A stretch of DNA of 64,000 bases, taken from Nemertoderma westbladi (taxonomy: Eukaryota > Animalia > Xenacoelomorpha). Positions 37,401-61,400 of the stretch are shown piece by piece (within the stretch, counting starts at the first letter, position 1; every line of letters starts with the position of its first letter). The translations under genes and the position numbers were made by a program. Location of the stretch: contig JAUCBJ010005969.1 in the NCBI GenBank assembly GCA_032718475.1, positions 16,116 through 80,115 of the forward strand. Reading direction: 5' to 3'. A model generated the notes under the pieces. The model had not been told where the DNA came from and did not search any database. It was given only the letters and a program-made list of their open reading frames with translations.

Positions 37401-40400
37401 CCTGTGTTCTCTCTCGGTTAGGGGTTTGGCCCCTGACCCTTATTGTGTGTGTCTCCTTTGGGGCCTATTGTCCCCGTTTACTGGGCTGACACGAGGTTGA
37501 TTGGTAATCAACCTCGTGCTCCCAATATTGCTTTATGGCTCACTCTATGGGTTTGTGTTAGCGGGATTGGATAAGCTAACATCTATCTCCAAGTGAATGT
37601 TATAATTATAATATAATTTATTGAAATAAAAATCAATCCTAAAAATGTATATATATTTGCGACGATACACAAGTCACATTGTCACAGCAAAGAACGTATT
37701 ATGCCTTAGGCGCGTTCACACTACCGAGTCAAAGTCAAAGTCAAAATAAAATAAATATAGCTAGCTAGCAATAATAAATAATAATACATTATATAGGCCT
37801 AATATAATACATAATGGCGTTCTAGAAAAAAATTAATTTCTTGTTATTTTTTTTACTAATTTTTTTGACTTTGACTCGGTAGTGTGAACGCGACTTTACA
37901 GTGATACACTTCAGTCATCAAAATTGATAACGGGAAGTTAGGAGGCGTTCATGATATAATGTTTATCATGTCAATTTTCCGAGTTTTCAATTCACGAGTT
38001 TCTGTTCACAAACTGTCGTAGTTTATTGTCGTACTCTTGTCTGTTTTTCTTTATTGTCGCAAAATGTTCAACAATTACTGTCATTTTCAATTGCAGTACC
38101 TATGGAAACTAAAGAGTCTCCCGTTGATGCACCTACAGAATCAACTCCAGTCAAGGAAATGGTAAGTTTTCCGCATAATATATTACATAGTTTTTAACGA
38201 CGGCAACTTTAAACGAACATTGTGAGTTTATCAATAGGCTGATACATATTTAGCTTACATGTGTACATATTATGTGGCCGTTGCGTTAGAAGAGGGCGAA
38301 TTCAGCGAGGCTCGTGAGGATCTCGCTGCTCTGGAGAAGGATTACGAGGAGGTTGGGGTTGATAGTGGTGGAGCCGAAGATGAGGAGGGAGATGAGGAAT
38401 ATTAGATGTCACTTTACAAACTCTATTCATTCAGCCGTCACTACTAGAAATATGCAACTCTTGGGTGTTTATATTAATTTTAATTCCTTTTATAATAATT
38501 TAATAGAATAAATGGTTATTTATTTTATAAGTTGGTTGGCAACAAAAAAAAAAAAATTTAACTTCCATATTCCGTTCAACATTTCTCTAATGTAAGTTAT
38601 TTCTAAATTCTGGTTCCTTTTTGGTAATAATATATAGCATTCTTATAACTTTGTCTTACAGGAACCCGGGCCGCCAAAGTTTATAAAGAAACTCAAAGAT
38701 ATGGAGACCTGGAGAGACCAGACCGTAAAATTAGAGGCCGTTGTTACTGGAGGTCCTAAACCTGACTTCAATTGGTTTAAAGACGGCAGAAAAATATATC
38801 CAGGTACTCTACAGCGTTTTAACATCGGTGATCACCATTTTTTGGAAGTCGTATTAGAAAATTTAATATAGTAGACACACTAAAGATATCATTACATAAT
38901 ATGACAAAGTTCACAACCTCTTGTTAAGCACTTGAGATATAGCCTATCACACGTCGTGAAATAATATTTCATTTGAGGTCTTATCAAACATCAAATAGGA
39001 CATTCAAATATTAAAGCTGGCATATTTTTACTCGTGCTGCAATCATGTAAAGTGCAACTTTACACGCCATAATAATCAATCAGTGATTGAAAACCCTGAT
39101 GTTACTTTAATGCTATATGAGACATGAGTTGTTTATTATGTTTTTAGGAAGAAATGCAGAAACTGGTAGTGACGACCAGGGCAACGTTTGGTTAATTCTC
39201 CCATCTGTTAGTAAGAGGGAAGCTGGCAAATATATGTTGAAAGCAAAAAATAGACACGGTGAAGCTGAAAGCGAATGCGAAATATCTCTTAATGAATGTA
39301 AGTAGAACCAAAATATTTATAACCAAATAGAATAAGGGTATTTTTGTTGCTGATAGGCCTATTTATATAGGAATCAATCACCTAAACCCGTGGTCCATGC
39401 AATTTCAGGCCATTTTTTTCAGAAATTCAGTAAAAAATTAGACCCTAAAGACTTAGGGTTGTGTTAGGGTCAACAACCTGCTAGTCACTGACTCATGTAC
39501 CGGTAGGTGTGCAGCCTGTGGTACTGTATTTATTACAGAATATTGGTGCCATACAAATTTTTTTTAATTACGATTCAGTAGACCTTCTCCTTCCGTTTAA
39601 AGGAATTATTTGCAAACTTTATCTTTTACGATTTTAGCGCCGGCGAAGATCGTTGAGAAACCGGACGCGGTGGCAATCAAGAAGGGAGAAACGGCAACGA
39701 TACGACTAATTATTAGCGGCCTACCGACGCCAACCGCCGAGTGGCAAAAGGACGGCAAAAAACTATCTGACATGCCGGATAAGTTAGTTTATTGCCTTTA
39801 TTGACTTTTTAATATAGAAGATAAGAGTTAAAACTAGTTCTGATATGCTTCAACATTTTATTTATTTTATATTATATTAATATTACTGTATAACACGTGT
39901 TAAAAACAATTACCATCACATTAAACTCAAATTCATAGTAAAATATAACAAAAGCACGTGGAGGGAACCACCCAGACAGTAGAGCACTTACGGGGGCTAC
40001 AATTATTGTGTCAAATAAATATATTATCGAAACAAATTATTATATTTTCATATTATTACCAAAACCCAGCACTACCCTGCAGGCACTAGAGTTTAACAGG
40101 AACTGCCATCCTTCTGCACCTTCTTGTTCTATGGCAGCTCACGGGCGAGCAGTAACGTGGTTGTCAGGCATTGCCATTCATGAAACGTTTGCTAAAAGGA
40201 CACTGAAGTCATTGATAACTTAGATAAATAGGGAATTTACCATGGCTGACGCGAACTTGGAGGTGTTATGTTGCGGTGCCTGGCCGATGTATGTATGTAT
40301 GTGTGTACGTATGTAGTAACACTGTAACATTAATATTTACAAAAAAGTGTTGGTATGCTAATAATTATTGTGAAGGTGGAAGCACACTTTACATAGCAAC

Positions 40401-43400
40401 TATAATATTATATGATTCAGAGACAGGATTTACTAAATAAATAAATGAAATAGAAATACAATAAAATTAGATATTAAAAAAAATTAAAACTTGGAAAATT
40501 AAGAAATTAACATATAACAAGGTGAGGCCCCAGCTCATATTTTTACATTATATATTTTTGGTAGGGCCTTTAGGGCACAGTGCATTATTTATTTATATGT
40601 AGTGTTTGTTTCGGTGCGGTTTGTTGTTTTTGCTGTTGTCCAATATGGTTTGTTGTGATAAGTCGCATAGCGGCTAGGGGCCAAAGCCCCGGACATTAAA
40701 GATTTACGTAACTTAACTTTTATATCCAACGAATTGTTAAGTAATTTTTGTGCCGATATGCGCTGCTAATGTAATGAAATAAATAATGATGAATTTGCTT
40801 CTCATTAGGTATGCGATAGAAACCTTGGAGAATTCCACAACGGCAGTGATACGTTCAGCTGGGGTGGAGGACCAAGGTCGTTATCGGGTTACTGTTCGTA
40901 ATCCCTCGGGGAGAGATAATTGTAACTTCACGGTGGCGGTGAAAGATGTCCCAGACGCCCCATCGCGACCAAAGGCCACCAGTGTTACACAATCGTCGGC
41001 TGTGTTGAGTTGGACGGCTCCTAGAAAGGATGGAGGAAGTGCAGTCACGCAGTGAGTTACAGTTTAGGCCTACTGTATATACTGTATATACATTGGGTAC
41101 AATGTTGTGGCAGAGGCTTTATCAGACTGTATGTATATCTGTCTGTCTGTCTGCTTGCCTGTCTGTCTGTCTGGCTGTCTATCTGTTTGGATGCCTGTCT
41201 GTATGTATTTATGTCTATCTGTCTGTCTGACTCTCTGTATGCATGTATTGTATGACTGTCTGATCATTGTATATCTGTATTTTTATCTGTCGGATTGACT
41301 GTCTCTGACTGCTTGTCTGTCGTCTGTCGGTATATCTGTCTATCTATCTGTATGTTTATCTGTCTGGCAGTCTTGCTATCTGTCTGCCTGACTATCCCTC
41401 CTTCTGTCGGTATATCTGTCTGTCTATATGTTTGCCTATCTGTCTGTATGTCCGTATGTCAACAAAAGTAAGGAAGCATACTGCTAACTAATTTAGCAGT
41501 ATTTTGTACTAGTTTTAACAGTACTTTGTACTAGTTTTAGCAGTACTTTGTACTAGTTTTAGCAGTACTTTGTACTAGTTTTAGCAGTACTTTGTACTAG
41601 TTTTAGCAGTACTTTGTACTAGTTTTAGCAGTACTTTGTACTAGTTTTAGCAGTACTTTGTACTACAGTAGTTTTAGCAGTACTTTGTACTAGTTTTAGC
41701 AGTACTTTGTACTAGTTTTAGCAGTACTTTGTACTAGTTTTAGCAGTACTTTGTACTAGTTTTAGCTACTAATTTGAATTTTGAAGTAACTATTTTGTAT
41801 GTCTGTGACTTTAACTATAATATGCATAATTTTAGTGCTAAATAGGATACCAAATATTATCGATATGTTTTAGATACACGTTACAACGCAAAGCAGCAGA
41901 CGACGCTAACTGGTTTACTGTATCCAGTAACGTCACCGACGTACAGTGCAAGGTTGACGACTTGCAACCCAATACAACTTACAGTTTCAGAGTTTTAGCT
42001 GAGAACGAAGTCGGACTAAGTACACCGGGACTCGAAGTTTCAGCCAAAACTATACGTAAGTCTTAAACATTGTAATCAACTTATACTAAGGCTGTAAAGG
42101 GTAACTAAGGTTGGGTGTAAACGCTACGCCGACAACCGACTGTCGACAACCACTGCCGACAACAGTAGAGTTAAAAATGTAACCTGAGTTCGTGACTCTC
42201 GTTTATTGTTTTGGTTAGAATAACTTCCACTGTAACCTGTACCTTTCCTTCAATTAATAAATGAGATTAATTAGCTTTAATAATGGTTGTCGGCGTTGGT
42301 TGTCGGTAGTCGGTTGTCGGCGTAGCGTTTTACACCCACCAAGGTTGTATTTAAGGTTCTTCATGGCCATATAATGATAGCCTATAATGCTATAATCATT
42401 TCAGCGAGATACCCATGAAACTAAATAAAAATGAAACCAAAAATTGACATATTTCAGAGGCTACGAAAGTAGAAAGAAAATCTGTTGTGATGGAGAAACC
42501 GAAAGTAGTTGAACCGCTAGTGGACAAACAACATAAAGAAAACGAGACTGCAGTACTGCAGTGCGTTGTTACTGGGTTACCATTACCAACTATAAGCTGG
42601 TTGAAGGTTAGTAGTGCAGTTCATAAAAAAACCACGGAATGATAGCACTAAAAACGATATTTAGTAAAAGTGGTCGGAATATGATCCGAAACCATTGATG
42701 GAGGTCACGGGGTAATAAAATATTTTAACAATACTTAATTATATTTATTATCATTATCATTTTACTGGTTTCTTGCTTATTAACAAATATACTAATATTT
42801 CTTCTTTAAACTTCTTTAAGTCTTTAAAAAACGGAAGTCAACATTGCATTAATCACCACATGCAATATATACATTCAAAATAAAGTAAAATAACTTAATT
42901 AATTTAAGTTAATAAGGCAAATTAGTTTATTGTTTTGATTAGATAAACTGTCACTTTAAACCTGCTCTTTTCTCCTAATAACCCCTAATTTATTAAAAAC
43001 ATGAATCCCGGAGTTTTACCCCCCCCCCCCCCCCCCCCCCCTCCCCCTATCCTTACTCCCGAATACCCGAATCGACTCTCATTAATAGTACCTTGATCGT
43101 CGTGTTACAGGACGACGAACCAATCCACGGCGAATGGCGGTATAAGGATACAATGCAGGAGAAGGATGGGAACGTGGTCGCGGTACTAACGCTAGTTAAA
43201 CTCGTCCTAGACGATGAAGCTGAGTACACATGCGAGGCGATAAACGACGCGGGAAGGGTGACCTCGTGCTGTGAGGTGCTCGTAGACGAGGGAGAGGGCG
43301 GCCCAAAGAAGAAGTTTATACAAGAGGAAGTCGACGTAATTCCCCCGGTGTTTACGGAGAAACTCGCGGATACTACGGTCGGATACTCCTTGCCTACGCA

Positions 43401-46400
43401 ACTGCGGTGCAAGGTTCTGGGCCAACCCAGACCTGGGATACAATGGTACCACAACGACCGCTTGCTGAAAACCTCCAAGTACAACCCGCTGGACTTCGAA
43501 GGAGACGTTGTTACTTACACCATGATGGAGGCGTTCAGTGAGGATAACGGAGTCTACAAGTGCGTCGCTACTAACGACGCCGGTGAAGCTGAGTGCCAGG
43601 CCGAACTCATTGTCAGCGAGCTGGAAGATGAACCCGATGAAATGAAACCCGCGTTTGTCAGGAAACTTGTAGATGAGTCACTCATTAATGGTGATAACGT
43701 TGAACTGCTGTGCAAAGTGAAAGCAAAGCCGCCTGCATCTGTCACCTGGTAAGTTTCAGTAAAAACACAATCCATTAGTGAAATGGTCTAAATAGGCATA
43801 AACCGAAACCAAGTTTGTCTTAATAAACCACATTCTAATTTGTTCTTAATTTTAAAACTTTTTCATTTTAAATTAGTTTGTATTTTTAATCGCAGGACGA
43901 AAGACGGTAAGCCCATAGAATCCGGAGCGAAGTATAGCATAACAAGTGACGCCCAGGGTTGGAACTCCTTGAAAATTACAGGTGTCCATGAGGACGCCGA
44001 TTCTGGAACGTACGCTTGTAAGGCTGCCAACAAGATAGGGAAGGCTGTTGTCGAAAGCAGAGTTCGTGTGAAAGGTAAGATGTTGTACTATATTCACCAA
44101 CAATATGTAAAAAGCACATTATTTTAGCAGCATTCTTAAAAATGCAGCTGTAATGCAGCATGCCGATCCTAGTAGTACTAGGATCGGCATGCTGTATTAC
44201 AGCTGCATTTTTAAGAATGCTCTGCCGGCTTGTCGACAAAATTGCGCCGCCACAACTCCGTATCACCCCTGAAATTTGCTAGATCATCCGCATCTTCAAG
44301 GCCAGTGTCCTTTAAGATGCGTCTCAAGAATGTCATGGGCTGTCCACCATGCTTATTCACTCCATGAGGCTGCCAATGTACAAGATTATGCACTGGCTGG
44401 TCCTCACGGCGAAAACAATGTCCTGCAAAGCGGAGGCGAATTTGTTCTAGTGTCAAGCTTGGGGGAACCACTGAGACACCTCCAATGTTATATAGTGTCT
44501 GGTTGGAGATGTGTGCATTGTACTTGACACAATGAACCCGGCGTAGCATTCTTGTGAATGTGCCATCCAGAGATTTGGTGTCCTCAGCAGTTAGAGCCCA
44601 GCATGGACTCCCATAGAGGAGTACTGGAACTACTGCTGCTCTAAATAATCGGACCTTAAGTTTCCGATTAATTCTCGGTGACTTCCAAATACTGGAAAGC
44701 CTATTCAAGGCTGCCCATGCCTTTCCCTTACGTATTCGAAGGTCCTCACCTGACTTCCGGATCCATGATCCCAGGTAACAGAAGTCGTCCACATGCTCAA
44801 GCATACCATCCTTTGAGCTTATGCTCATCCGGTCAGAGACTTGCTGAGGACTTTCAAAGTGAACTGTCAAAATTTTGGTCTTTCTGGAGTTAATAAAAAG
44901 ACCAACACTAGAAGCAGCATGTTCTAATGAGCTGAGGAGCCGTTAGGCTCCCTCTAGTGATTCTGAGAGTACTCCTAAGTCATCAGCAAAGTCTAGATCA
45001 GTTAGGTACTTGGCAGGATTTCCTCGACTTCTGGAGCCAGTAGGTGGAGTTATCATCACCCCATCATCATTATGATGATCTAAGGACATGCGTAGAACAT
45101 AGTCAACCACAATTATGAACAAGAATGGTGCAAGTGTATCTCCATGGGGGACGCCCCATAACACTTCAAATGGTTCTGTGTCACCGTCAACAGTAGACAT
45201 AAATGTTGTCGAACCATCGTATACTGATCTGATTGCTGCAATAATTTCATCAGGAATCCCATATAATGAAAGTATGCTGAACATACGTGAGCGAGAGACT
45301 GAATCATAGGCCTTGAAGAAGTCAGCAAAGATAACAGCCAGATGCCTGTCTTTCATTTTTGATAACTCTTCAATTATCCTTCTAAGTGCCAAAATGAGCT
45401 TCATGGTCCCACGACCTTTACGGAACCCATTCTGATTTCCACGGAGCCGTCTCTCAATGGGATCCCTGATGCGATTTAATAGAATTCTATTGTATAGCTT
45501 TGCAGCAATCGAGATCAATGAGATTCCCCGAAAAGAACCATAGAGTGTTAGGTTGCCCTTCTTGGGAACTGGCACCAACTTATTTGTTTTCATTTCTTGT
45601 GGGACTCTTGTTGTTCGGTACATGTCTACTATGATGGGATATATGATCTTTAAACACTCAGGTATTTTAAAGACCTCAGGGGGGAACACCATCTACTCCA
45701 CTGGCACGATTGGTCTTAATGCTCTTTGCAGCAGCCTTCACTTCTGCAAAGGAGGTATCGCCAATGGGATTATCTGGGAGTAAAGACTCAGACACTTTTA
45801 CTTCTATAAAGTTATCAGGCAATACCCTGTCATTATTGAGGAGCTTTTCAAAGTGGGCCTTCCAACCATTGAGGCGATCGGCTGGTGAAAAAGCCTTATC
45901 CTTCCTTGGTGGTTGGTTGGCTTTTCCGCCCAGTAAGCAAGTTGATCGATTTCCATGCCTGGGATGATTGCCTGCTGTCGTCAGCATCATTGATGGCATC
46001 AACCTGTTGGTTTATTAGCCCCCTACTTCATAGATAAGAGCCAAGAGAGAGAGGAGCCGTCGGGTTGCCTCCGGTGGTTAGTATCTCACTCGTTCATCGA
46101 TCACTTTACTTTACTAATAATGTTGGCTGAAAAAACACAATGTTTGTTGAATCATACAGTTTCAGTCAAAATTTACTTGAATCGAATTAAACGAATCTTT
46201 AACCGAGAATATATCGTAACTATGTGTGCCCTCTTTAGACGCCTCATCTAACCTGAACACTGTGGCACCTGGACGAAAACGTGAAAGAAGGAAAAAGGAG
46301 AAAAAACGCGTTAAAAACATCAAACAGGTTCTCACAGCACCAACTCCAGCCCGATTCATTGAAAAACCAGTTCCTGTTTCCGCCACTGAAGGTAGGTAGA

Positions 46401-49400
46401 ACTTAATCACATTCAGTTCAATTACATTACCTTTAATAGACTACTACTTATAAAATACAATGGGAACTTTCCTTTGGTAAAAATTTTACCTTTATTTTTG
46501 AGAACAATATAGATTTATACTGAGTCAACAATGTGTTTTTTTTTGGGCAATAATATGACTAGTTTCTTGTGTAAATATGACACTTATTTCTGTAACAATA
46601 CAATGTATCACTTACATGTGGCAACAATATCGATTTCAACAATGACCCACTTTTCCTGTATAAAAGTTTGATTCTTTACTTGGACGAATCAATTTGTTAT
46701 ATTCTGACAGAACCAGAAATTCCGCTGCCCCAACATCGAAAATGCTCTCAAATTGTACTTCAGTAGCCCACGAAGAATTGGATAGTTATTGGTTGGCTAC
46801 CACCAAGGTCATCCTAATATTATACTGTGTGTTATATTTTTTATAAAATAAAACGTATTTAAGAAAATGTTAGGAAACCAACACGTTATTATAAAACTAT
46901 AACAAATAACACAAGCTTACGAAATAATATAGCTTGTGTAATTTGTTAAGTTTTATAATAACGTGGTTGATCTTGGTTTACTCACAATTTTCTTAATATA
47001 TTTATTTATTGTAACCGGATCACACATTCCAACGGAAACTTTGACTTGCCCAATTTATTATCCATAATTATATTTTTTGTATATACGATGGCCTTGCTAC
47101 CACGCCACATATAGCTATTCCAATCAGGAGGTTTTATTTTAGATAAAATCCTTTATAAGATGGTAATACAGTATATAAACTGATCTTCCCTGCAGGAGAT
47201 ACAGTCGAATTTAAGTGTCGAGTTGAGGGTCTACCCGATCCCAAGGTGGGGTGGTTTAAAGGATGGCGCGAATTCACGGATTCCGCCAAACATCAACTAG
47301 TTCACGACGACACTTGCGACGACTTTGCTCTCATTATACGGTGAGTTGGAAATACCGGTCGGTCGCATTTAGTGAATTCTTTCACATTTAGGAGAGGTAT
47401 TTTTGTGCCTTTTCCGTTTTTTTTTTGTTTTGTCTTTATATTTTTATATATGACTATGTTATATAAATGTAATTTTTATTGAAAACAAACAACTGGGTAT
47501 GACATAGATTATTTCAGTCACTTTATATTTATTTGCAATCGAGTTGTTTAACAAACCTAACCTACAGTATGTATGATTAATTTGATTGGTTTCTACAGAA
47601 AAGTTGAAACAAAAGAAGCCGGAAACTACAAAGTGAAGATAAAGAACGATCATGGCCAAGACGAGTGCGTAACTACACTAACAGTTACAGAGAAAGTCAA
47701 AGAAGAAGCAGATTTCAGGAAAAATTTGAAAAGGTAATGTTAATCAGTTTGTTATTGTTTGAATTATTTAACAAGTTTGTGAGATTAGAAACTACGGTAT
47801 GATTTAGGGTAGCTACAGAGAATATTCTCCTATAATTATTTTGATTTATTTTCATATTGTTAGGCGACCATCAGCTGTTGCTAGGGACGCCGGCTTCTCA
47901 ATGGATCAGCTGCTGGACATTATGCAGAACATGAGTAAGGCCCAGATGGAACAATTCGCCATGTCCCACGGAATCACAGATTTCCGCGCTTTATTGAAAC
48001 ACTTGAAGATGCATCGAGAGAAAAAGGAGGCTGAGGAGTTGGAGGTGAGTACTAAATTAGAAATATTATGTGACTCCGGAGGAATAACTTTATACGGCGG
48101 CTGAGAATCAGTGTTAGTATCTAGGATGTTGTTGTTGTTAGGCCTACTGTACAGTTGTTGTTGTTGTATGTACTTAGGTCCTATGACACGTGTTGTTGCT
48201 ATGGAGATACGTTCCGGTCTGCATTTACATATGTTGCACTTAGCAGTATTTTAATGTCTTGACATCGGCAGCCAGTAGGACTACATTAGGCTTGAACATT
48301 CAGTGGCTGCCGCAGATAATAAATTGTTGGAAGGCCGTAGGCTATAGTCGTAAATTGCGGACATTCAAGGTATCAGGAAGTATTTCCAGGTCTATCTTTC
48401 ACCTGAGCTGCTAGCTGAATGGTTAGAGCGCCAGACTCCCAACCTGAGGTCACCAGTTCGATCCCTCCTTTTGCTTTGTTAGCCCATAATAATAAATCCT
48501 TATTCATTGTATTTTCACCAAATTTGTTAGTCAGTTTATCCTTAACATTGTTTTGTATTGGTATGAGTAGATAATTGTTAATTAAACGAATACAACAGCT
48601 TAAAATAAAGATAGGTAGGTACCCAGTTATCGCAAATAGCAAAGAGAAAGGAATAACCGTCGACAATGTCTATATGTCTATGTTTATATAATTTGTTTTG
48701 ACAGACAGTTAAACGTAAACTGAAACCTGTTTTACATCGGCAGTCTACCGAGAGTCGCATTGCCAAGGAATTACAGGTAGCTCGGTCGCCATGGTTATTA
48801 CCATAACACTAACCGCTTAAAATGAATAATTTCTCTTTTCTGATCATTACATTTTTCATGGACAATAATCAACTGTATTCTTTCATGATCTGATCATATT
48901 TCAATCTGTTTGTTTCTCAGTTCAAATATATAATCGTACATAAGTTAAGGAAGTAGACCGCCCCGTCACCCGAGTAACGTGATATGGTGGGAAAGGTGAT
49001 CTTTTACAGGCAAATAGATAAAAAGATAAGTATTCGGTTGGGAATATTAAATTTGCGGGTGTTTAAGTACCGTTCCTTTTTTTGCGACGTTTTGTCCATA
49101 TGCTTTTGAGACTGGAAAACTGACCTAAAACGCTGCTAAAAGATAATGTTATCCTTATCAATTTGAAAAGATTATAGAACAAAACAATAAAAGTGCATGC
49201 CGAAATATGTTGGAAAAATCTCCCAAAATACGGCCAAGCGAAAACAGAACTTTAATCCATAGAATTTACGTAAAATGCAAAAATAAAGAGTTTGTCTCAA
49301 AAATTAAGAAAACCTGTAATTCACCACCTGTAACTACGAATACTTATCATAATAAATGCATTTCTTCATAAACTTTATTTCTCTCATTCACACTCTGATC

Positions 49401-52400
49401 TCATTACATTTCATTCATTCATGTTTTGTATTAATTGTTGTCGTATACACGAATCACTACAATAAATTTTACTAACATATGAGTTGTTTGATAAGATACA
49501 TTTAACACAATAAGTTTACTGCCTATAGCGTTCATACTTATGATATTTTCAAAAATCCAACTTGTCATCCTAATCTCCTATGTGCCAGTCTTTCACCATC
49601 CTAATCTCCGATAGGCCAGTCTTTCACCATCCTAATCTCCGATAGGCCAGTCTTTCACCATCCTAATCTCCGATAGGCCAGTCTTTCACCATCCTAATCC
49701 CCATAGGCCAGTCTTTCACCATCCTAATCTCCGATAGGCCGGTCTTTCACCATCCTAATCTCCTATGGGCCAGTCTTTCACCATCCTAATCTCCGATAGG
49801 CCAGTTTTTCACTATCCTAATCTCCGATAGGCCGGTCTTTCACCATCCTAATCTCCGATAGGCCAGTCTTTCACCATCCTAATCTCCCATAGGCCAGTCT
49901 TTCACCATCCTAATCTCCGATAGGCCGGTCTTTCACCATCCTAATCTCCGATAGGCCAGTCTTTCACCATCCTAATCTCCTATGGGCCAGTCTTTCACCA
50001 TCCTAATCTCCTATGGGCCAGTCTTTCACCATCCTAATCTCCGATAGGCCAGTCTTTCACCATCCTAATCTCCGATAGGCCGGTCTTTCACCATCCTAAT
50101 CTCCCATAGGCCAGTCTTTCACCATCCTAATCTCCTATGGGCCAGTCTTTCACCATCCTAATCTCCGATAGGCCAGTCTTTCACCATCCTAATCTCCGAT
50201 AGGCCAGTCTTTCACCATCCTAATCTCCTATGGGCCAGTCTTTCACCATCCTAATCTCCTATGGGCCAGTCTTTCACCATCCTAATCTCCGATAGGCCAG
50301 TCTTTCACCATCCTAATCTCCGATAGGCCAGTCTTTCACCATCCTAATCTCCGATAGGCCAGTCTTTCACCATCCTAATCTCCGATAGGCAAGTCTTTCA
50401 CCACCCTAATCTCCGATAGGCCAGTCTTTCACCATCCTAATCTCCGATAGGCCAGTCTTTCACCATCCTAATCTCCGATAGGCCAGTCTTTCACCATCCT
50501 AATCTCCGATAGGCCAGTCTTTCACCATCCTAATCTCCGATAGGCCAGTCTTCACCATCCTAATCTCCGATAGGCCAGTCTTTCACCATCCTAATCTCCG
50601 ATAGGCCAGTCTTTCACCACCCTAATCTCCGATAGGCCAGTCTTTCACCATCCTAATCTCCGATAGGCCAGTCTTTCACCATCCTAATCTCCGATAGGCC
50701 AGTCTTTCACCATCCTAATCTCCGATAAGCCAGTCTTTCACCATCCTAATCTCCGATAGGCCAGTCTTCACCATCCTAATCTCCGATAGGCCAGTCTTTC
50801 ACCATCCTAATCTCCGATAGGCCAGTCTTTCACCACCCTAATCTCCGATAGGACAGTCTTTCACCATCCTAATCTCCGATAGGCCAGTCTTTCACCATCC
50901 TAATTTCCGATAGGCCAGTTTTTCACCATCCTAATCTCCGATAGGCCAGTCTTTCACCATCCTAATCTCCGATAGGCCAGTCTTTCACCATCCTAATCTC
51001 CGATAGGCCAGTCTTTCACCATCCTAATCTCCGATAAGCCAGTCTTTCACCATCCTAATCTCCGATAGGCCAGTCTTCACCATCCTAATCTCCGATAGGC
51101 CAGTCTTTCACCACCCTAATCTCCGATAGGACAGTCTTTCACCATCCTAATCTCCGATAGGCCAGTCTTTCACCATCCTAATTTCCGATAGGCCAGTCTT
51201 TCACCATCCTAATCTCCGATAGGCCAGTCTTTCACCATCCTAATCTCCGATAGGCCAGTCTTTCACCATCCTAATCTCCGATAGGCCGGTCTTTCACCAT
51301 CCTAATCTCCCAAAGGCCAGTCTTTCACCATCCTAATCTCCTATGGGCCAGTCTTTCACCATCCTAATCTCCGATAGGCCAGTCTTTCACCATCCTAATC
51401 TCCGATAGGCCAGTCTTTCACCATCCTAATCTCCTATGGGCCAGTCTTTCACCATCCTAATCTCCTATGGGCCAGTCTTTCACCATCCTAATCTCCGATA
51501 GGCCAGTCTTTCACCATCCTAATCTCCGATAGGCCAGTCTTTCACCATCCTAATCTCCGATAGGCAAGTCTTTCACCACCCTAATCTCCGATAGGCCAGT
51601 CTTTCACCATCCTAATCTCCGATAGGCCAGTCTTTCACCATCCTAATCTCCGATAGGCCAGTCTTTCACCATCCTAATCTCCGATAGGCCAGTCTTTCAC
51701 CATCCTAATCTCCGATAGGCCAGTCTTCACCATCCTAATCTCCGATAGGCCAGTCTTTCACCATCCTAATATCCGATAGGCCAGTCTTTCACCACCCTAA
51801 TCTCCGATAGGCCAGTCTTTCACCATCCTAATCTCCGATAGGCCAGTCTTTCACCATCCTAATCTCCGATAGGCCAGTCTTTCACCATCCTAATCTCCGA
51901 TAAGCCAGTCTTTCACCATCCTAATCTCCGATAGGCCAGTCTTCACCATTCTAATCTTCGATAGGCCAGTCTTTCACCATCCTAATCTCCGATAGGCCAG
52001 TCTTTCACCACCCTAATCTCCGATAGGACAGTCTTTCACCATCCTAATCTCCGATAGGCCAGTCTTTCACCATCCTAATTTCCGATAGGCCAGTCTTTCA
52101 CCATCCTAATCTCCGATAGGCCAGTCTTTCACCATCCTAATCTCCGATAGGCCAGTCTTTCACCATCCTAATCTCCGATAGGCCAGTCTTTCACCATCCT
52201 AATCTCCGATAGGCCAGTCTTTCACCATCCTAATCTCCGATAGGCCAGTCTTTCACCATCCTAATCTCCGATAGGCCAGTCTTTCACATTAAAGACCTTA
52301 AAGACTCATTTCCGCGCTCCTTTTTATGAAATTTTTTCGAGCTTTATGTTAATAAATTTCTAGAACATCATTGCTTCAAGATGAATCTGAGAATTTTGGA

Positions 52401-55400
52401 ATGTTAAAACATAAAATATAGAATAAAGTTCCAAAAAAGCTAATAGAAAAGCTTGAAAAAAAGGTCATAAAACACGCACTTAAACCTCATTCAGAATTTT
52501 TTTATAAAAATTTATAAAAAATCATGATTAGACTGGATGTATAAATTAGTGGTGGTGTGACATGAATGTCCTAGAAATTAAATTTGTTCATAATTTTTTA
52601 ATTACTGAATAAAGCTAAGTTAGTCAACCGTCTCACTTCAAAACTCACTTATATAAAATATAGAAAAGGCAAAAAAAACTAAAAAAATCTATAAAATAAT
52701 CCAAAAAAACAGCAAGAAAATTTAAAAAGCAGCTCGGAAACTGAATTTATCTAAAAGTTATTAAGCGATACTCCCATTCTCAAATACCCCGATCCAAAAA
52801 TATTTAAACTTAACGATTTCCTAGAATGTTTCGTAAACAAATACAAGCAGCACCAAAACATTCAAGTTTCGAACACATTATATCGATATCTACCAATAAA
52901 TTTCAGATGTCTTTAAAGATTTGAAATCCTTGTAAACCCTTTCCATAGAGAGCAACCCATCAAATCACGAAACGTTTGAATAATAACTGTAGAATGACTG
53001 GTGCGGTGATATTTTTAAATTATTTTACAAATTAATATAAAATTGCTTCAAAGCACAATGTTTAAATAATAATATATAATAAACGATTATATACCGGTAC
53101 CCCATTCCCCCAATCCTATTAGTTGTTCAGTTAATTATTATCAGCACTTCTGACGTCGGCATATCTGACAGTCGATGAATCACCTCCACCCGCTGACATA
53201 ATAAACCTCTCGTCTTGACTCTCAATAACCTTTACCGTCGCATCCTTCATTATCGACTCGCTCTCCAACACCTGCTGCAACCTCTCCCTCTGCTCATCGC
53301 TCTTTACGATCGTTATTAAACGAGAGGTTCTCTTCCTCGCGCGCCCGCGTACCTGCACCAAGGCGGTCACACTGGCCGGCGGCGCCAGTTGTATGACCAA
53401 CTCGCACTCTGGAAGATCCACCCCCTCTTCCGCCACACTCGTGGCCACTATAATACGGTATTTGTATTCTCGGATTTCTTTCAATGTTCTCTCCTGCTGC
53501 TTCACCGCCATGCCCCTGGTCGAGCAGAAGTCACCGATTTTAGCTCCATGCGCACCGTGGCCTACCAAACAAGCCACACTGAAACCAGAATCTTGTAAAG
53601 CTAAGTCGTTTTCCAGTTTTTCGGACAAATACCAAGCGACAATCCGCGTTCTTACCAGCAATAATATAACATCTTTACTCATCATTGAAGGAGCTTCTGT
53701 CAGTAGCAACGCCTTAATTTTACTATAAACAGATTCGGGATTTCCAATGTTAATGATTTTATATAACTTAGATATAATATTATGCAAGTGGGAAAATGGT
53801 AAACCAACACACATCCTCTGTAGTCTCGATATATTATTATTGTCTGCCGGCATGTATAACTCGTATAATTGCTTGTAACAACTTTCCAAGCTGCAAATAT
53901 CAAGAACTATCAAGCTATCGATTATTGTTACTAAGTGATTCAACAACAAGGTATCACTGTCTCCTGAAGCCCCCCGCTCATTGGCTATCTTCTTTAACAC
54001 GGTGGTTAATTTGTTGTGGAGGCTACTAAGATGCTGCAATCTGGTTTCCTCAGACATAATTTCCTCTGAACTCGGAAAAACAACACCGAAATTAGGGAGA
54101 TTCGCTAAACAGAGCAGAGAGTACCTCAGCAATTCCTGCAAAATAGTTTCCTCTTCGGAAGTTTTGGGAACCACGAGTATGTCGATGTTAGTTAAACTGG
54201 AAACCGACTCCAAATCAACGATATTGTCTTTTACAACTCGCAATGTTGCGTCCCCGAAGTCCCGCAATAACAACCGCAAACGTGCAATAGTATCTCGAAG
54301 AATCGAACTCCCAGCAGGAGAGGCCGTTAACCCAAGGAGTTTCGGTCGCGACTCTACTGCCGTTTTCTTCAAATAGACCTCCAATATCTTCTTGTAGGGG
54401 TGATTCAACGTGCAGTGGTGAGCTTCATCGAAAACAACAAGAGAAAGATCAGACCAACGAACTAAAGATTCGCTCAGTAAATTCAAATAATACGCGGCGG
54501 TAGCAACTAAGATATGTTGCGAGTGAATGTGGTCACCAGTGATGTCTTGTTTGTCGCCACAGAGACTGCCGATTGTCAACTCTCGTCCATTGACGATAAC
54601 GTTACGCAGTTCTTCCTTGAGGTACTGACTCTGCTGCAAGACTAGCAAAACTTTATCCACAAGGAAGACAATCTGCCTCTGAGGGTTTAATTGCAACATT
54701 TTCGATATAACCATCGCGGATATCAGTGTCTTTCCAGTACCTGTAGGCAAGAAGATTACAGAAGAACTGTCGTACATTACTTTCTGGTACAATTCAACTT
54801 GATATGACCTGGGTTTTGTCAATGTTAGATTATAGTAGTCAGAATGATTTGCTCGCTTTTTTATTGGGCTATCATAAGTTCTTTCCGGGGCTTTCCCGAA
54901 CATGGCGACTTTCGCTTTGTGTTTTGTGCCATTGAAATGATCTCTAGACTTCGCCTGCGAATCCAACAGCACCACGCAAATCTTACAAAAGTATGGTAAT
55001 ATAGTATCTGAGGATATCGAACTAGTAGAGTCATTGCATTGATAACTGGGGGTTTCTGATTCGGTTATACTTATTCTCGATAAAGATTCTTCCAGCTTTA
55101 CCATGCTAAAAGTCTCATCACCTGTGTTTGTAAAACTAGTTCTAGTGCATCCTACGTCGCTTGCATCATTTGGTCTTGTATTCATAGGCTGAAGAATATC
55201 TGAAATTATAAAATATTATAAAAATAAATGTTTGACTTAATTTGATTACATATTTAGTCCAGTCAATCTAATGAAAAAAAGGCGGTAACCCACAACTAAT
55301 TCGCAATTCATCAGAACCAATTTTTTTGATTCTACAATATCTTGCTAATATCAACAAAAAGTCTATAAAAATTAATTATGCGGATCACTTTCAATTAAAT

Positions 55401-58400
55401 GCTTCCTTCCTTCGCAACAGGGATTTTACATAGCAACAAGGGGTCCATTGGTGGGAATTCCCCAAATTTGGTACAGAAAAAACTTTACAGCATATTAGAG
55501 CGTAAGAGCTTATATACACAACTTCTCTATCTCTACGAACGGGGTGCATGTAACTTCGCCCATCGGATTTGTCGACCTCAATAACCCTTATCCCCCCCCC
55601 CCCCCCCCCAAAAAAAGATTTATTATATATGATAAATTATTGTGGTTTTAAACTAAAACATAATTATATACCTATAAAACTATAAATAAATTAGACCTAA
55701 AATAAATACACCAATCACAATTTTATTTTGTGAAATGAATTGCAGCATATTTATTGTGTAAGTAATTAAATTATTCTGGAACATCAATAATTTACCACGT
55801 ACTCTTCCCTGCTGTTCCTTTTGTTTGGTTGTGTTAAGCAAATTAATGTAGTTAGAAATATTTAAACACTTAATAATTAATATTCTTGAATATGGTCAAT
55901 TAAAAAGTTACATAAATGAAAAAAAATGTAGTATCCAAAAAATGGGGTTCGGATTGATTGCGAATTACTTTCGAGTTTTATGCTAAATTGACTCGCCTAA
56001 TTACAGCTTTGGGATTCATGGTTGCTAGCTAAGCTGGGGGTACGCTAAAGTGTACGTTAAAATTTATCAGTGCTGAAATTGTAGTGTTTGTTAAAATAGG
56101 TGCAAAAGCTTTTTACTTTTATCAATTCCTATAGGCCTAATAAATTTTGATCAAAATATAACACCTGTTTCTTAACAATAAGGTATGTATATAAGTACGG
56201 TAAATAGATATTAATATGTGGAAATTAATACTGGAGTTGCGAAATAACTGGGATTACACCCTATTCTTAATAGGCCTACCGGTATAATATCCCTTCCCTA
56301 ATACAAAATAATATACAGCAAAAGTAAATAAGAATCATATATGCTCAGCTCAGTATACTCACACTCACACGGATTATAACAATTACAATTTATTTTATTT
56401 TATTTACCTTTTTCTGTATCAAAGTCCTTGGAATCATCAACTTCTGAATCACCAGCGTCTGCCTCTCTATAAACTGCTTCGGGTGAGCAAATATACTTTT
56501 CTCGATAAGCCAGTTCCACCTTATTCACGTGCTTTTTGCTCGAAACGTGGTCTAATTTTGGAGCCAATCCACTTAAGGTTATATCACATAATGTGCATTG
56601 AGAGCTTATATGAATCATTTTATTCGTTTCTTCAAAAAACTGGTCTAACGATTTATTTACACTGGAATTTGTAGCGAAATTTTCAGTCAAAAAACTAATT
56701 ATTTCAGCAACTGGTGTAAAGGATATATAATTAGCAACGGTTCTTGTGTGAGACTTTCCCTCGATATGACTAACGGCCACAGACCGTCCACTCATCGATT
56801 TCACGCGACACAAAACGCACTTAAACGTTGTTAACACCCTGTCATTAATGAGCGATTCGGTGTGCTTCATATTAATACTGGAGTTTGTTGAAGTTATGGA
56901 CTTGGTATCCGATGTCATCATTATTGTTGGCGTTTGCTGTAAATTTGATGATATTGGCGTAATCATTGAACACTTTGTATCATCATTGCCACCTTCGGGT
57001 GGAGAGCGCTGTACTGTTGGTACTACTGCAATAACATTGGGTCTTCCAAAGTGTTTAGGGACCACCTATTAATTTTTGACATGTTGTTAACTGATTTTGG
57101 CATCGATCAGATGAGGTCTCTATCATTGATTAATCATTTGATTAATACAATTAAATTTAGATTTGATTAAACAATTTGATTGATATCATTGATTAACTAG
57201 TATATTTTGAATTTTGGATAGGTTCGGTTTAGTTTAGGGGTAAAAAAATGGACAATAATAATTTGTGCGAAATTTCTGAACTTTTGAGACAGTTTAATTA
57301 GTGTTAATGTTTAATTATATGTTACCTAATTCAAGGTTTATCTTATGGATGTTTATTTAATTAATTTAATTAGAGGGTAACTTACTTGTGTACCCTTATG
57401 AAAATCTGGTGTACGAAATTAAATTAAATTAAATTGACCTACATAAAAGGGGCGTGCCGGAAGTGTTTGTATAGGTGGTCCAGAGACACTTACAGCTTCT
57501 ACCCTTAACGTCTGACTCCTTTTGTTTTATTTTATGATCCAAGGAAAGTAAGTGGGCTTGGCACTCCTGGTCGTCATTAAATGACAACCCGCAAACCCGA
57601 CAATCGAGTTTACTTATTTCTACTGGGCCGACATTTCCAGAAGTTGGGCCTACGTGGTCGACTACAGTCATTTCTTCTTTGAACTTTATATTTTTTTCTT
57701 TTGTTGACGCATGCTTCTCACTTTGTAAATGTTTTTTCAAAACCTCTTCTGTATTGCAAGCAATGAGGCAATCATTACAAAATGGTTGATTGGGGTTTAA
57801 CTTTAGACTTGCTATTACTTGGATTCGGCGATTGTGTTCTTTGCCAGTAATATGCGCCTTGTATGCGGATTGGCCACTCACTTTCGAGCAGCAAATGTCG
57901 CAGTACGGACGATATATTTCATTTGTTTCACTAGCTGGTCTGATTCCTGGGAGGGTGATATCCGAAACATGTGCAGAACTGGACATCGGCAATCCAACTG
58001 TACTTGAAGGAGTACCTGCTGCGAGATGTGGCATTGGTAGGTTTATAGGTCTACCAGGGGATTCTCGACTAAATGAATACCCTCCAGTTTGTAAGTCGCA
58101 GTCGCTGAGTTTTGATGTCATGCTATCTTTGAATTTCTGATTTTTTAACTTTGTTTCGAAATGCTTTGGGCTTGCCACATGTTTCATTAATATATCCGCT
58201 GTGTCACATCCAACACTACATTCAGAACAAAACGGTAGAGTGGGAAATGTCTGGTGTTTCCGAACAGCGTCAACTCTGCGTATATGGTCCTTACCAGTCA
58301 TGTGCGCCTGCATATGCGATTGTCCATTAAATGTTGTACAACATATATCACATGATAGAGATGATGCAATTTGAGGTTGTACAGCCGACATGCCCAGAAA

Positions 58401-61400
58401 ATTTGTGATACCAGTAGGTGGTGGTCCTACCTTTGTTTTCTCTGAAGTAGTATTGTATTGTTGGTTGGCCGTTTCCGGTACTTCCCATATTCCATCATTG
58501 CAGGCAGCGTTGCCACTGGCACTGGGTATACCGGTAATATTTGAACCTGAGGCGACCATCATAAATTTATGACGTGATGTTGTTAAATGTGCGTCATACT
58601 CATCATCATCATGACATTGTACATCACATGCATTGCAGTGTCTCTTTTTATCCCTTGTCGTTGTCGTAAATCCTGGAGGTGGTTGTATAGGCCTTGTCGT
58701 AGGCCTACCGATAAGTCCTGGAGGTGGTTCTACAGGCCTAATGATATCACCAGGAGCAAAGTTTCGCAAAGCATCGGCGGCTTTACGATGTTTCGCGGAC
58801 TTAAAATGCTGTTCTTGTGGATCGCGACCATTTAATGAGACACGGCAAATTTTACAGTCATAAATACCGTTATACATTATAGATTTGTGATGTAGCCATG
58901 GATGGCAATCATTTCTTTAGGCCTACTTATTCACGAGAAATTACACCAGAAAACTGGATTTAAAAATGCGAAATTTCAGTAGCCTGCCTTCTTCCGGTAC
59001 TGTACTAGAGAAAACCGCCATGCATGACCATCTGACCATGGCTTTAATTCAGATAGGGGGGGGGGGGGGGGGGGAACTGAACGCAATAAAAATGCATCCC
59101 TCTCCAGAGGAAATTCGACGCAAATAATGAATAACAGCTGATTTGATTACTCTCAAAAATAAAACTGTAACCTGCTGACCTGTTCTATTGTGTTTAGTTT
59201 ATTGTTTTGGTTAAAATAACGTGCCACTGTAACCTGCTCCTTTCCCTAAATTGAGAATTTAACATTGACTGATTGAGGCGGGATATTAATTCTGTAATTC
59301 TGTAATTCGCCACGGCTGCAAGGCGGGTTTTGCGTCCAGTTCACCCCCCCCCCCCCCCCCCCCCCTGTCTCCTTTTAATCAGTCTGTCAGTTAATTACAG
59401 GCTAATTTAAGATTATAGGCCTACTGTTACTGTGTTATAGCTGTATAGTATAGACCTACTCCTGTATTCAGGTAGGCCTATTCTCAGACAGTCAGACGAC
59501 TCTGTCTGTGGCACGGCACAAGACAAGGCAGCAAGGGGGGACTACCTGTACGGCGGTACCGGCTGACCGGTACGGACTGATTGCCAATTATGCAATTGTT
59601 AGCCCTACCGGTATGCTTGCCTGCTAGTACAGTAGGCAGTTAGTTAGTTAGAATACAGGAATAGAACAGAGTACTAGTCCGGTAGTCAGATATCAGACAG
59701 AGTACTGGCTGACTGGAGTATAGCCAGACTGCCAGATAGCTCTGTAGTAGGCCTACTGGCAGACTGGCCTATGTGTATGTCAGTATGTACAATGTAGTAG
59801 GCCTTAGTACGACAGTACGAAGTACAAAGTACAGTGCTATGTTGTCAGGCCGTGGCACTACTGCAGTGCAGTACAGGCACGGCAGTTGTTGTATAGTACT
59901 GTAGTAGTAGTACTAGTAGTAGACACTAGACAGCAGACTGGACTGGCAGACAGGTCTACTACTACTATGTACTAAATACAGAAATTGGTTGACGAAATAG
60001 GACATAGGCCTACCCCTTGTCAAGGACACAAACTTGTTGTGTTGAGAACAATAATTATGATGATGATGATGCTGATGCTGATGAAGTTACATGAAAATGT
60101 GTTTTCTTTTGTATAAATTGTAAAGTAAACCAGTAAATGAAAAGCGAAATCTATTAATTTATTCATTAATAATTCGTTGGAAATCGAAAACTATTTACAT
60201 ACAGTAAGTAACTACTGTACAATGGGCATATTGGCATTTCATAAAATTATGTAATGGACTAATGGTAAGATAACATTCCTCGTCGCTATAGTGACGCGAA
60301 TCAATAGTAACTATATACATACGTACGTCGGCCCATGTGAATAATACCAGACTTTCTGCTGTTATATTTCACTTTGCAGTTACCCCCATGTGAAGAATAC
60401 CAGGTTTTCACCAAAAACACAGGTTACAGAAGGCGCTGAATCTAACCAAAACAATAAACGAATTTATGTATATGGTACAGGTTATAAGACAGAAATAAGC
60501 GCTATAAAACACTTAATAAAGATAAATTAAAAAAAATAAAAAATCTTCATATATAAAATATCCTATAAGAATGTCGACCGAAAAGTGTAAATCCTGGTAT
60601 TCTTCACGTGGGCGTCTTATAACCTGTATAGATACATATTCGTTTATTGTTTTGGTTAAAATCCACCCTTCTGAATCCTGTGTTTTTAGTGAAAACCTGG
60701 TATTCTTCACATGGAGGTAAACTGCAAAGTAAAATATAACAGCATAAAGTCTGGTATACTTCACATCGGCCAGACCTTCCGGATGTCAATTGCTGTCCAC
60801 CACTTTTCATCTCGTTCATCGGCTCCCATACAACAAGGATAAAGTTATACGATGAGTCTACAGATTAGTCTAGCAGCTGTCGCCTGTTAGACTGTGTGTT
60901 GTGCAATGCCTTGTTTGTTAAGGAAACATTGTATTTTATGCCATGAACTCGGCAGCATCTTGGTGTCAGGGCCGGATTAATGGGGGGGGGGGGGGGGGGG
61001 GGCAAGGGGCCCGGGCCACCCACCAAGAGGGGCCTCCCACCAATTCCACCAATACGGCCATAAATTTAATAATAATATAATTATAACGAACCTGCCTATT
61101 AATAGGCCAGGGTAGTACTTGTCAAGAGTTAAGCCGTTCAAAAACACGATGTGGGGTGTGTGGGGTGTTGGTGTGTGTATGTATAACCATCCAATATCTC
61201 AAAACTCAAAGCAGGTGCGCATAAATTTTAATACCAAACTCTACATAAATTTTGGTTGCGCACAAGACTGTATATTTTTTGTGGCGTTGCGATCACGGGG
61301 TCACTGAAAAATAGCGGTTTTGAAAATTGTCGAATTTAACCGATTTCAACTCGTCGAGTATGCAGCAACTTTTTTATTTAGGCTATTCAGTCATTTGAGC

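Follow-up and report, generated by a model that had tools for sequence, protein, structure and literature searches.

Here we describe a minus-strand gene in a 64,000-nucleotide stretch of the Nemertoderma westbladi genome (assembly GCA_032718475.1, contig JAUCBJ010005969.1, positions 16,116 to 80,115; hereafter the window). The gene likely encodes a single protein in which ten zinc fingers of the JAZ/matrin type precede a superfamily 2 (SF2) helicase of the RIG-I/Dicer type (Table 1), as predicted from in-frame splice sites. Three minus-strand open reading frames (ORFs), at 58916-57429, 57065-56400 and 55215-53131, carry seven, two and one of the fingers, respectively, and the predicted coding exons join into a stop-free protein of 1356 residues. 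Two of the splice sites are good, the GTAAGT donor at 57493 and the TTTCAG acceptor at 55199. For exon 2 the 5′ boundary is uncertain, with 57025, 57022, 57013, 56992 or 57065 as candidates. Four phase-1 acceptors fit this exon, giving products of 1345-1356 residues; a possible micro-exon (57405-57386) combined with the acceptor at 57065 is also in frame (1376 residues), and skipping of exon 2 keeps the frame as well (1150 residues, eight fingers). Each of these in-frame paths joins fingers to helicase, and finger 10 lies within the helicase ORF itself.

The strict pattern C-x2-C-x12/13-H-x5-H matches ten times in the six frames of the window, and all ten matches lie inside the gene. Chance was rejected as the source of the fingers: in 1,000 shuffles of the three ORFs the mean number of matches was 0.005 and the maximum one. 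Nine of the fingers have 12/5 spacing and one has 13/5, the first finger cysteine being residue 8 of the protein. Pfam places zf-met and zf-C2H2_jaz above cut-off on ORFs 1 and 2, and on ORF 3 a weak zf-U1 match that stays under it (E 0.011). The pair formed by fingers 3 and 4 is identical to that of fingers 5 and 6 at 33 of 75 residues, which suggests an internal duplication. Within 13 residues from the first histidine, every window finger has two to four lysines or arginines. In JAZ, basic helix residues contact double-stranded RNA (dsRNA) irrespective of its sequence (PMC6488673), and the array is plausibly an RNA-binding module.

The helicase, on which Pfam recognizes ResIII, DEAD and Helicase_C, is complete. 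Motifs Q, I, Ia-Ic, II (DEAH), III, IV, IVa, IVb, V and VI, labelled as in the literature on RIG-I-like receptors (RLRs), remain intact both in the window and in 50 relatives outside the corals, and the window keeps 100 of the 107 positions that are conserved at ≥85% among 54 relatives. The tail extends 73 residues past the glutamine of motif VI, or 67 past the last arginine of the motif, and its first part is the pincer helix. With six anthozoan rows that have no standard motif VI left out of the count, 49 of 52 relatives end 45-66 residues past this glutamine and three are longer. Up to E 0.1, Pfam found no RIG-I_C-RD, caspase activation and recruitment domain (CARD), Dicer_dimer, PAZ or RNase III in the three ORFs, nor was a dsRNA-binding domain (dsRBD, PF00035) found in them. 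The surroundings likewise yielded no exon for a RIG-I-type C-terminal domain (CTD, PF11648), RNase III, PAZ or dsRBD among 111 ORFs of at least 50 residues at 38-64 kb, a scan outside which lie shorter exons and the satellite at 50.0-52.3 kb.

An AlphaFold model of finger 10 and the helicase, built on a 63-row alignment, reached a predicted local distance difference test (pLDDT) score of 89.8 and a predicted template modelling (pTM) score of 0.88. The insertion domain is helical and the C-terminal end forms a long helix (residues 568-603), with pLDDT of 89-96 across finger 10 and the start of the linker. Its best structural matches are the helicases of RIG-I, MDA5, LGP2 and DRH-1 (Foldseek E 1e-28 to 1e-23); structural alignment gave Z 28 over 510 residues (root mean squared deviation 5.3), and identity to RLRs across the structural comparisons is 20-24%. 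On RIG-I the match begins at residue 240 and, including the pincer, ends at about 779, ahead of the CTD. By sequence, the top match in the PDB is AncD1D2, a resurrected ancestral helicase of Dicer (E 3e-41).

The original prediction, made from the letters of the window, had described a three-exon ORF of about 1356 residues with ten fingers split seven, two and one, JAZ-type finger spacing, a complete SF2 helicase of the RIG-I/Dicer type and no CARD, CTD, PAZ or RNase III; the ORFs, the strict pattern and the Pfam matches agree with all of this. Its placing of the stop about 60 residues past motif VI was slightly short. The downstream exon with a CTD or RNase III that it had named as a counter-indication did not turn up in the scan above.

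Table 1. Positions in the window of the features of the predicted finger-helicase gene
Feature	Position	Strand	Remarks
Predicted coding exon 1	57494..58877	-	ATG at 58877; fingers 1-7 among low-complexity linkers
Exon 1 donor GCT/GTAAGT	57493	-	phase 1
Possible 20-nucleotide micro-exon	57386..57405	-	acceptor CAG at 57405, donor CAA/GTAAGT at 57385; prediction only
Predicted exon 2	56408..57025	-	fingers 8 and 9; donor AAG/GTAAAT at 56407
Predicted last exon	53131..55199	-	acceptor TTTCAG at 55199; finger 10, linker, entire helicase, stop
Finger 1	58788..58856	-	
Finger 2	58569..58637	-	
Fingers 3 and 4	58161..58352	-	close pair
Fingers 5 and 6	57711..57902	-	close pair
Finger 7	57534..57602	-	
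Finger 8	56819-56748	-	13-residue spacer
Finger 9	56597-56529	-	
Finger 10	54919..54987	-	helicase-proximal; 80 residues ahead of motif I
SF2 helicase, RIG-I/Dicer type	53191..54813	-	Hel1, helical Hel2i, Hel2, pincer helix
Helicase motif I	54750-54727	-	
DEAH (motif II)	54429-54418	-	
Motif VI	53355-53335	-	
Pincer helix	about 53298-53191	-	
A+T-rich stretch after the stop	52290..53130	-	about 840 bases; ATTAAA near 52602

The A+T-rich stretch behind the stop is likely the 3′ untranslated region, bounded by a 31-bp satellite (49566-52287). ORF matches at 38-64 kb otherwise consist of the Ig, fn3 and tri-helix-bundle exons of a muscle-type gene on the plus strand and a reverse transcriptase remnant. 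The former is a multi-exon gene at 38638-48045, possibly continued from 48706 onward, with Ig I-set, fn3 and tri-helix-bundle (THB) exons, and resembles myosin-binding protein C or twitchin. Because its last seen exons end in donors, it may run on around the helicase gene, which would then sit in one of its introns on the opposite strand. The remnant (44211-45692, minus strand), of a non-LTR (long terminal repeat) element and split by a stop, lies inside it. Two long minus-strand ORFs (7327-11403 and 32250-34826) carry DUF1759, which is typical of gag regions in BEL/Pao LTR retrotransposons, and further long ORFs at 4198-5716 and 35169-36962 have no Pfam assignment. Large tandem arrays at 1-1136, 16392-23630 and 49566-52287 have periods of 34, 17 and 31 bp, the last two with strong strand skew. 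Two similar copies of a short sequence, probably a repeat, lie at 60345-60785; a weak tRNA_SAD match there (60345-60527, E 0.002, under cut-off), in repeated sequence that looks non-coding, was dropped. The neighbours give no functional clue for the helicase gene.

The animal finger-helicase family

With the helicase as query, a set of proteins that also carry zf-met or zf-C2H2_jaz stood well clear of RLRs and Dicers, at 30-45% identity. They come from the hemichordates Glandiceps and Ptychodera, from the brachiopod Lingula, the nemertean Lineus, the flatworm Macrostomum and crinoids, from many bivalves, gastropods, Octopus and corals, and from the sponges Oscarella, Corticium and Sycon, and bear source labels such as ‘RIG-I-like’, ‘DHX58-like’, ‘dicer 2-1’, ‘Dicer homolog’ or ‘uncharacterized’. 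The layout that the original prediction had proposed to seek in other invertebrates is common to them: 1-13 fingers, helicase and a short tail. As judged from sequence, JAZ/matrin-finger helicases of the RIG-I/Dicer type are a family of their own, conserved from sponges to hemichordates. In the transcript assembly of a sponge (P0009) one complete ORF spans the fusion, and contigs of 4-5 kb carry it as single ORFs (P0004, P0125, P0133, P0139 and P0147). Orthologous loci include LOC134230665, LOC127705998 and LOC101845957. A Lingula record and several mollusc records consist of the helicase alone (P0068, P0007, P0010).

Finger counts and spacing were taken from 55 of 56 hand-picked members, the remaining one having no parsable motif I. 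The first finger lies within 12 residues of the N terminus in 31 of 55 relatives, and 45 of 55 keep 73-86 residues between finger 10, or its counterpart, and motif I. The 12/5 spacing holds in 365 of 394 fingers from 58 family proteins; across 371 family fingers, glycine or serine stands three after the first histidine in 97%, and at four helix positions lysine or arginine is present in 43-63%, depending on the position. The linker contains an A-P-x-R motif (80, 88 and 65% of 49 family rows) that is present in the window. C-terminal extensions of 230-580 residues occur in P0141, P0143 (Dreissena) and P0012, with no Pfam match in the two that were scanned. An unnamed ORF of 1093 residues (P0244) holds tandem helicases, the first RLR-like (PF18119) and the second of the finger-helicase family; it may be a fusion or a mis-call, and was left out of the trees.

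No named vertebrate, arthropod, nematode or annelid match appeared among the roughly 8,000 candidates that each word-based search scored, many of the matches being unnamed, which is not proof of absence; the lack of named vertebrate, arthropod and nematode matches suggests repeated loss. The original prediction had not recognized a named family, and no description of one was found in the literature searched, judged mostly by titles and abstract openings and with subscription journals largely outside. In the main text of PMC9334734 the locus number of the Aplysia orthologue occurs nowhere, and neither PMC11103948 nor PMC10159624, supplements aside, was found to describe the family. The RLR survey of PMC8998645, in which lophotrochozoan RLRs are expanded (227 genes in 58 species), took PF11648 as its first screen; starting from the RIG-I CTD, it would therefore miss finger-helicases, and the word ‘zinc’ does not occur in the article, supplement aside.

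Anthozoan members differ in that a Z-alpha domain (PF02295) precedes the two fingers of coral and anemone-type proteins; a pattern search picked up a Z-alpha-like core in 11 of 25 proteins of this kind. Records P0015, P0017, P0021-P0024, P0369 and P0370 show a Z-alpha or a decayed copy of it, two fingers and eroded motifs IVa-VI, and are possible pseudo-ATPases. Table S6 of Romero et al. 2024 (PMC11298590) lists Z-alpha sequences from Acropora and Actinia that match, by eye, the Z-alpha stretches of P0024 (two differences in about 60 residues) and P0049, so the unnamed anthozoan Z-alpha protein of that study is very likely a member of this family. The main text of the study names neither fingers nor helicase for it and reports tests of viral and bacterial domains only; figure S3, on domain architectures, may already show the anthozoan layout.

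Descent of the helicase

Two trees were calculated. FastTree was run on 251 of 286 full helicases, 35 near-duplicates having been dropped, and IQ-TREE on 55 chosen rows and 476 columns, rooted on four archaeal Hef. The RLR rows of the latter are LGP2 and invertebrate RLRs, with RIG-I, MDA5, DRH-1 and eukaryotic FANCM left out, and six of its rows have skewed composition. In the FastTree result the window falls in a clade of 64 rows (0.993), 57 of which have at least one finger, against a single loose finger match among the 187 rows outside. The seven finger-less rows of the clade are five short mollusc records that start at or near the helicase and two non-animal proteins. The family part of the tree roughly tracks species, with few paralogues.

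In the IQ-TREE result, which includes LGP2 and Dicers from the helicase phylogeny that the original prediction had called for, the finger family forms its own clade at 95/84, joined at 97/95 by two protist proteins (a Spongospora cluster and a brown alga) and at 92/86 by six amoebozoan dsRBD-helicases and Balamuthia. RLRs separate at 100/98, Dicers at 87/85 and helicases fused to an RNA-dependent RNA polymerase (RdRP) at 88/89. A 100/100 branch splits the four Hef rows from all RLR, Dicer, RdRP-fused and family rows. The best matches outside the family are likewise amoebozoan dsRBD-helicases (192 bits), followed by RdRP-fused helicases, Dicers and RLRs. With moderate support, the nearest kin would be helicases of protists, some of which bear dsRBDs and share the layout of Dictyostelium HelF.

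Three other origins were rejected. An RLR with a swapped CTD does not agree with a helicase outside the RLR clade, and the forced union of family and RLRs was rejected by the approximately unbiased (AU) test (p=0.011). Forced union with animal Dicers was rejected too (AU p=7e-5), and with it a truncated Dicer. For an orthologue of Hef/FANCM, the 100/100 split from archaeal Hef is joined by the NCBIfam result, in which no model exceeds its cut-off and the best, Hef, scores 134 bits (E 6e-39) where 610 are required. The original prediction had proposed a distinct dsRNA sensor or remodeller in which fingers replace the CTD, possibly for defence against viruses or transposons. A distinct protein with fingers as its plausible RNA module stands; since the family lies outside RLRs and animal Dicers and nearest to protist helicases, it is therefore not an RLR whose CTD has been replaced.

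Two helicase-RdRP fusions, P0265 and P0308, have a weak RIG-I CTD-like match at the N terminus (E 9e-5 and 2e-5), as by eye do P0057 and P0266. The CTD fold may thus have sat N-terminally in the RdRP-fused branch, and a deeper ancestor with a CTD-fold domain is possible.

Proposed function and its alternatives

Helicases of the RIG-I/Dicer class are dsRNA-activated and translocate without unwinding (PMC8659333). The best explanation for the window protein, to which we give a little better than even confidence, is an ATPase clamp, switched on by dsRNA and loaded through the fingers, that would remodel or sequester long dsRNA and neither signal nor cut by itself, tuning RNA interference (RNAi) or innate sensing via partners. 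Its ten fingers would bind the backbone of long dsRNA and pass the duplex to the helicase, several low-specificity fingers on flexible linkers providing avidity for long or multi-stem duplexes. The helicase would clamp the duplex and use ATP to move along it, to displace proteins or to shield the RNA from other enzymes. Finger 10 may be a fixed part of the enzyme that couples binding to the motor, because it keeps a conserved spacing from motif I whereas the outer fingers vary from 0 to 12. Because there is no CTD, the enzyme would read duplex length and not 5′-triphosphate ends; because CARD and RNase III are absent, its effects would come through partners, and it would regulate or assist RNA silencing or the innate sensing of dsRNA like Dictyostelium HelF or LGP2. 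The fingers would do the job of the dsRBDs in the amoebozoan relatives, and the anthozoan Z-alpha is another duplex-binding module in the family. Loss of helF renders Dictyostelium cells hypersensitive to RNAi and leaves microRNA (miRNA) levels normal (PMC2175303, PMC4894637).

Several points weigh against this proposal. The exon junctions in the window are predictions only, with weak acceptors at exon 2. Acidic residues stand in the helix of several window fingers, and a PDB sequence search with exon 1 returned no solved structure to E 0.1, those of JAZ/ZNF346, ZNF385 and ZMAT3 included. The finger of spliceosomal U1C is of the same type and is not known to have a long-dsRNA role. U1C-type fingers also bind short stems, not long dsRNA, in TUT4 and tRNA dimethylallyltransferase (PMC6488673). 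The FANCM translocase fits the model at Z 24.6, and the fold alone therefore leaves the substrate undecided. The link to HelF, at 92/86, falls below the starred level of support, with an inner fork of 86/56, and FastTree does not resolve this node (0.05-0.22). D. discoideum P0062 is 28% identical to the window helicase, and function need not follow tree position. In the six full-length anthozoan members motifs IVa-VI are eroded; ATPase activity is therefore not universal in the family. The literature searched described no experiment on any member.

Unlikely, but the most serious of the alternatives, is a signalling sensor, in which fingers and helicase would assemble along viral dsRNA into a filament or condensate and the long low-complexity linkers would recruit an adaptor or kinase, for an interferon-like response without CARDs. 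The fold is nearest to RLR helicases; human ZNF346, made of fingers of this type, moves into foci of dsRNA and enhances PKR activation according to a preprint (10.64898/2026.06.03.729416); abalone and Aplysia, which carry the gene, are reported to be without MAVS; and anthozoan members have Z-alpha. However, the Pfam lists of family members contain no CARD, death or TIR domain, the linkers are not conserved, the helicase lies outside the RLR clade, and the species-like tree with few paralogues differs from that of the expanded lophotrochozoan RLRs. A remodeller or regulator is the better guess because there is no signalling domain.

We consider it more doubtful still that the protein is a nuclear translocase, similar to Hef/FANCM, for RNA:DNA hybrids, R-loops or branched DNA, its fingers (and Z-alpha in anthozoans) reading hybrid or Z-form. 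JAZ fingers do bind RNA:DNA hybrids. Hef is the best NCBIfam model, far under cut-off as it is, FANCM aligns with the model, and Hef-like clusters lead the ESM Atlas lists, which returned generic Hef/RLR clusters only and none with fingers, small clusters being unable to show there. Against this, Hef is split off in a tree that contains no eukaryotic FANCM, nuclease and helix-hairpin-helix (HhH) domains are absent, and the nearest kin carry dsRBDs or RdRP.

Housekeeping would account for the low copy number and the slow, species-like divergence: the protein would remodel ribonucleoproteins of structured endogenous RNA (pre-miRNA, small nuclear RNA or tRNA-like stems) outside defence, and the short stems bound by U1C-type fingers in TUT4 and the tRNA enzyme (PMC6488673) fit such substrates. 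A finger number that ranges from 1 to 13, the repeated loss suggested by the named matches, the motif erosion in anthozoans and the normal miRNA levels after helF loss in the amoeba make it improbable. That the finger exons and the helicase exon here are separate transcription units, or the gene model a chance join, is hardly credible: weak exon 2 acceptors and helicase-only records speak for it, but finger 10 and the helicase share one ORF, all splice options are in frame, and a single protein has as many as 13 fingers among the relatives, some of which are single ORFs on short contigs.

We regard a broader scenario as possible rather than probable: besides Dicer and RLRs, animals would have inherited a third, stand-alone line of dsRNA-clamp ATPases, descended from a HelF-like protist enzyme whose dsRBDs were swapped for JAZ arrays before the sponge split. 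It would be an overlooked core part of how most invertebrates other than ecdysozoans control dsRNA. The model lineages would have lost it, and in anthozoans it would have gained Z-alpha and lost its ATPase motifs to become a pseudo-helicase that binds Z-RNA and dsRNA. By its sequence the family looks like duplex-RNA-activated ATPases, yet it groups with neither RLRs nor animal Dicers. Accounts of antiviral dsRNA handling in animals usually set Dicer against RLR; another helicase family of ancient origin, in sponges, corals, molluscs and hemichordates, would if true supply a missing player for lineages with unclear antiviral wiring, among them abalone and sea hares, which are reported to be without MAVS. 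The family accounts for the mis-annotations quoted above, and gives the orphan anthozoan Z-alpha domain a context. The dsRBD, JAZ finger and Z-alpha may be exchangeable loaders on one motor, for whose study oyster, mussel and sea anemone are accessible hosts.

Comparison with known systems

With the RLRs (RIG-I, MDA5 and LGP2; DRH-1 of C. elegans), the window protein shares the Hel1-Hel2i-Hel2-pincer fold and intact ATPase motifs, and with LGP2 the lack of CARDs. It differs in having no C-terminal zinc-binding CTD and no CARDs, in reading DEAH and not DECH at motif II, and in its separate clade. Dicers and RdRP-fused helicases lie with the family on the non-RLR side of the 100/98 branch. Unlike animal Dicer-1/2 and fungal and plant DCL, however, the window protein is devoid of DUF283, platform, PAZ, RNase III and dsRBD, and the Pfam lists of family members contain no RNase III, PAZ or DUF283. 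The helicase-RdRP fusions of Dictyostelium (Rrp), Hydra and Willaertia have a related helicase (up to about 175 bits) on the same broad branch, but are finger-less and fused to an RdRP, some with the weak N-terminal CTD-like domain. Relative to Hef/FANCM, the window protein has neither nuclease nor HhH domain, and relative to the protein of Romero et al. 2024 it has no Z-alpha.

JAZ/ZNF346, ZNF385 and ZMAT3 have similar arrays of widely spaced C-x2-C-x12-H-x5-H fingers and, to our knowledge, no enzyme domain. Of the named groups, the one that stands nearest in the tree is HelF (DDB_G0294407) and the amoebozoan dsRBD-helicases, among which P0062 was matched to published HelF by layout and species (844 versus 837 residues, dsRBD at 4-75 versus 2-76). 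These too are stand-alone Dicer/RIG-I-type helicases with accessory dsRNA-binding domains and no nuclease or CARD, and they have the HxTLASPAG-type motif III and the VGHG motif IVa region common to the family. Where HelF-like proteins have dsRBDs at one or both ends, the window protein has zinc fingers.

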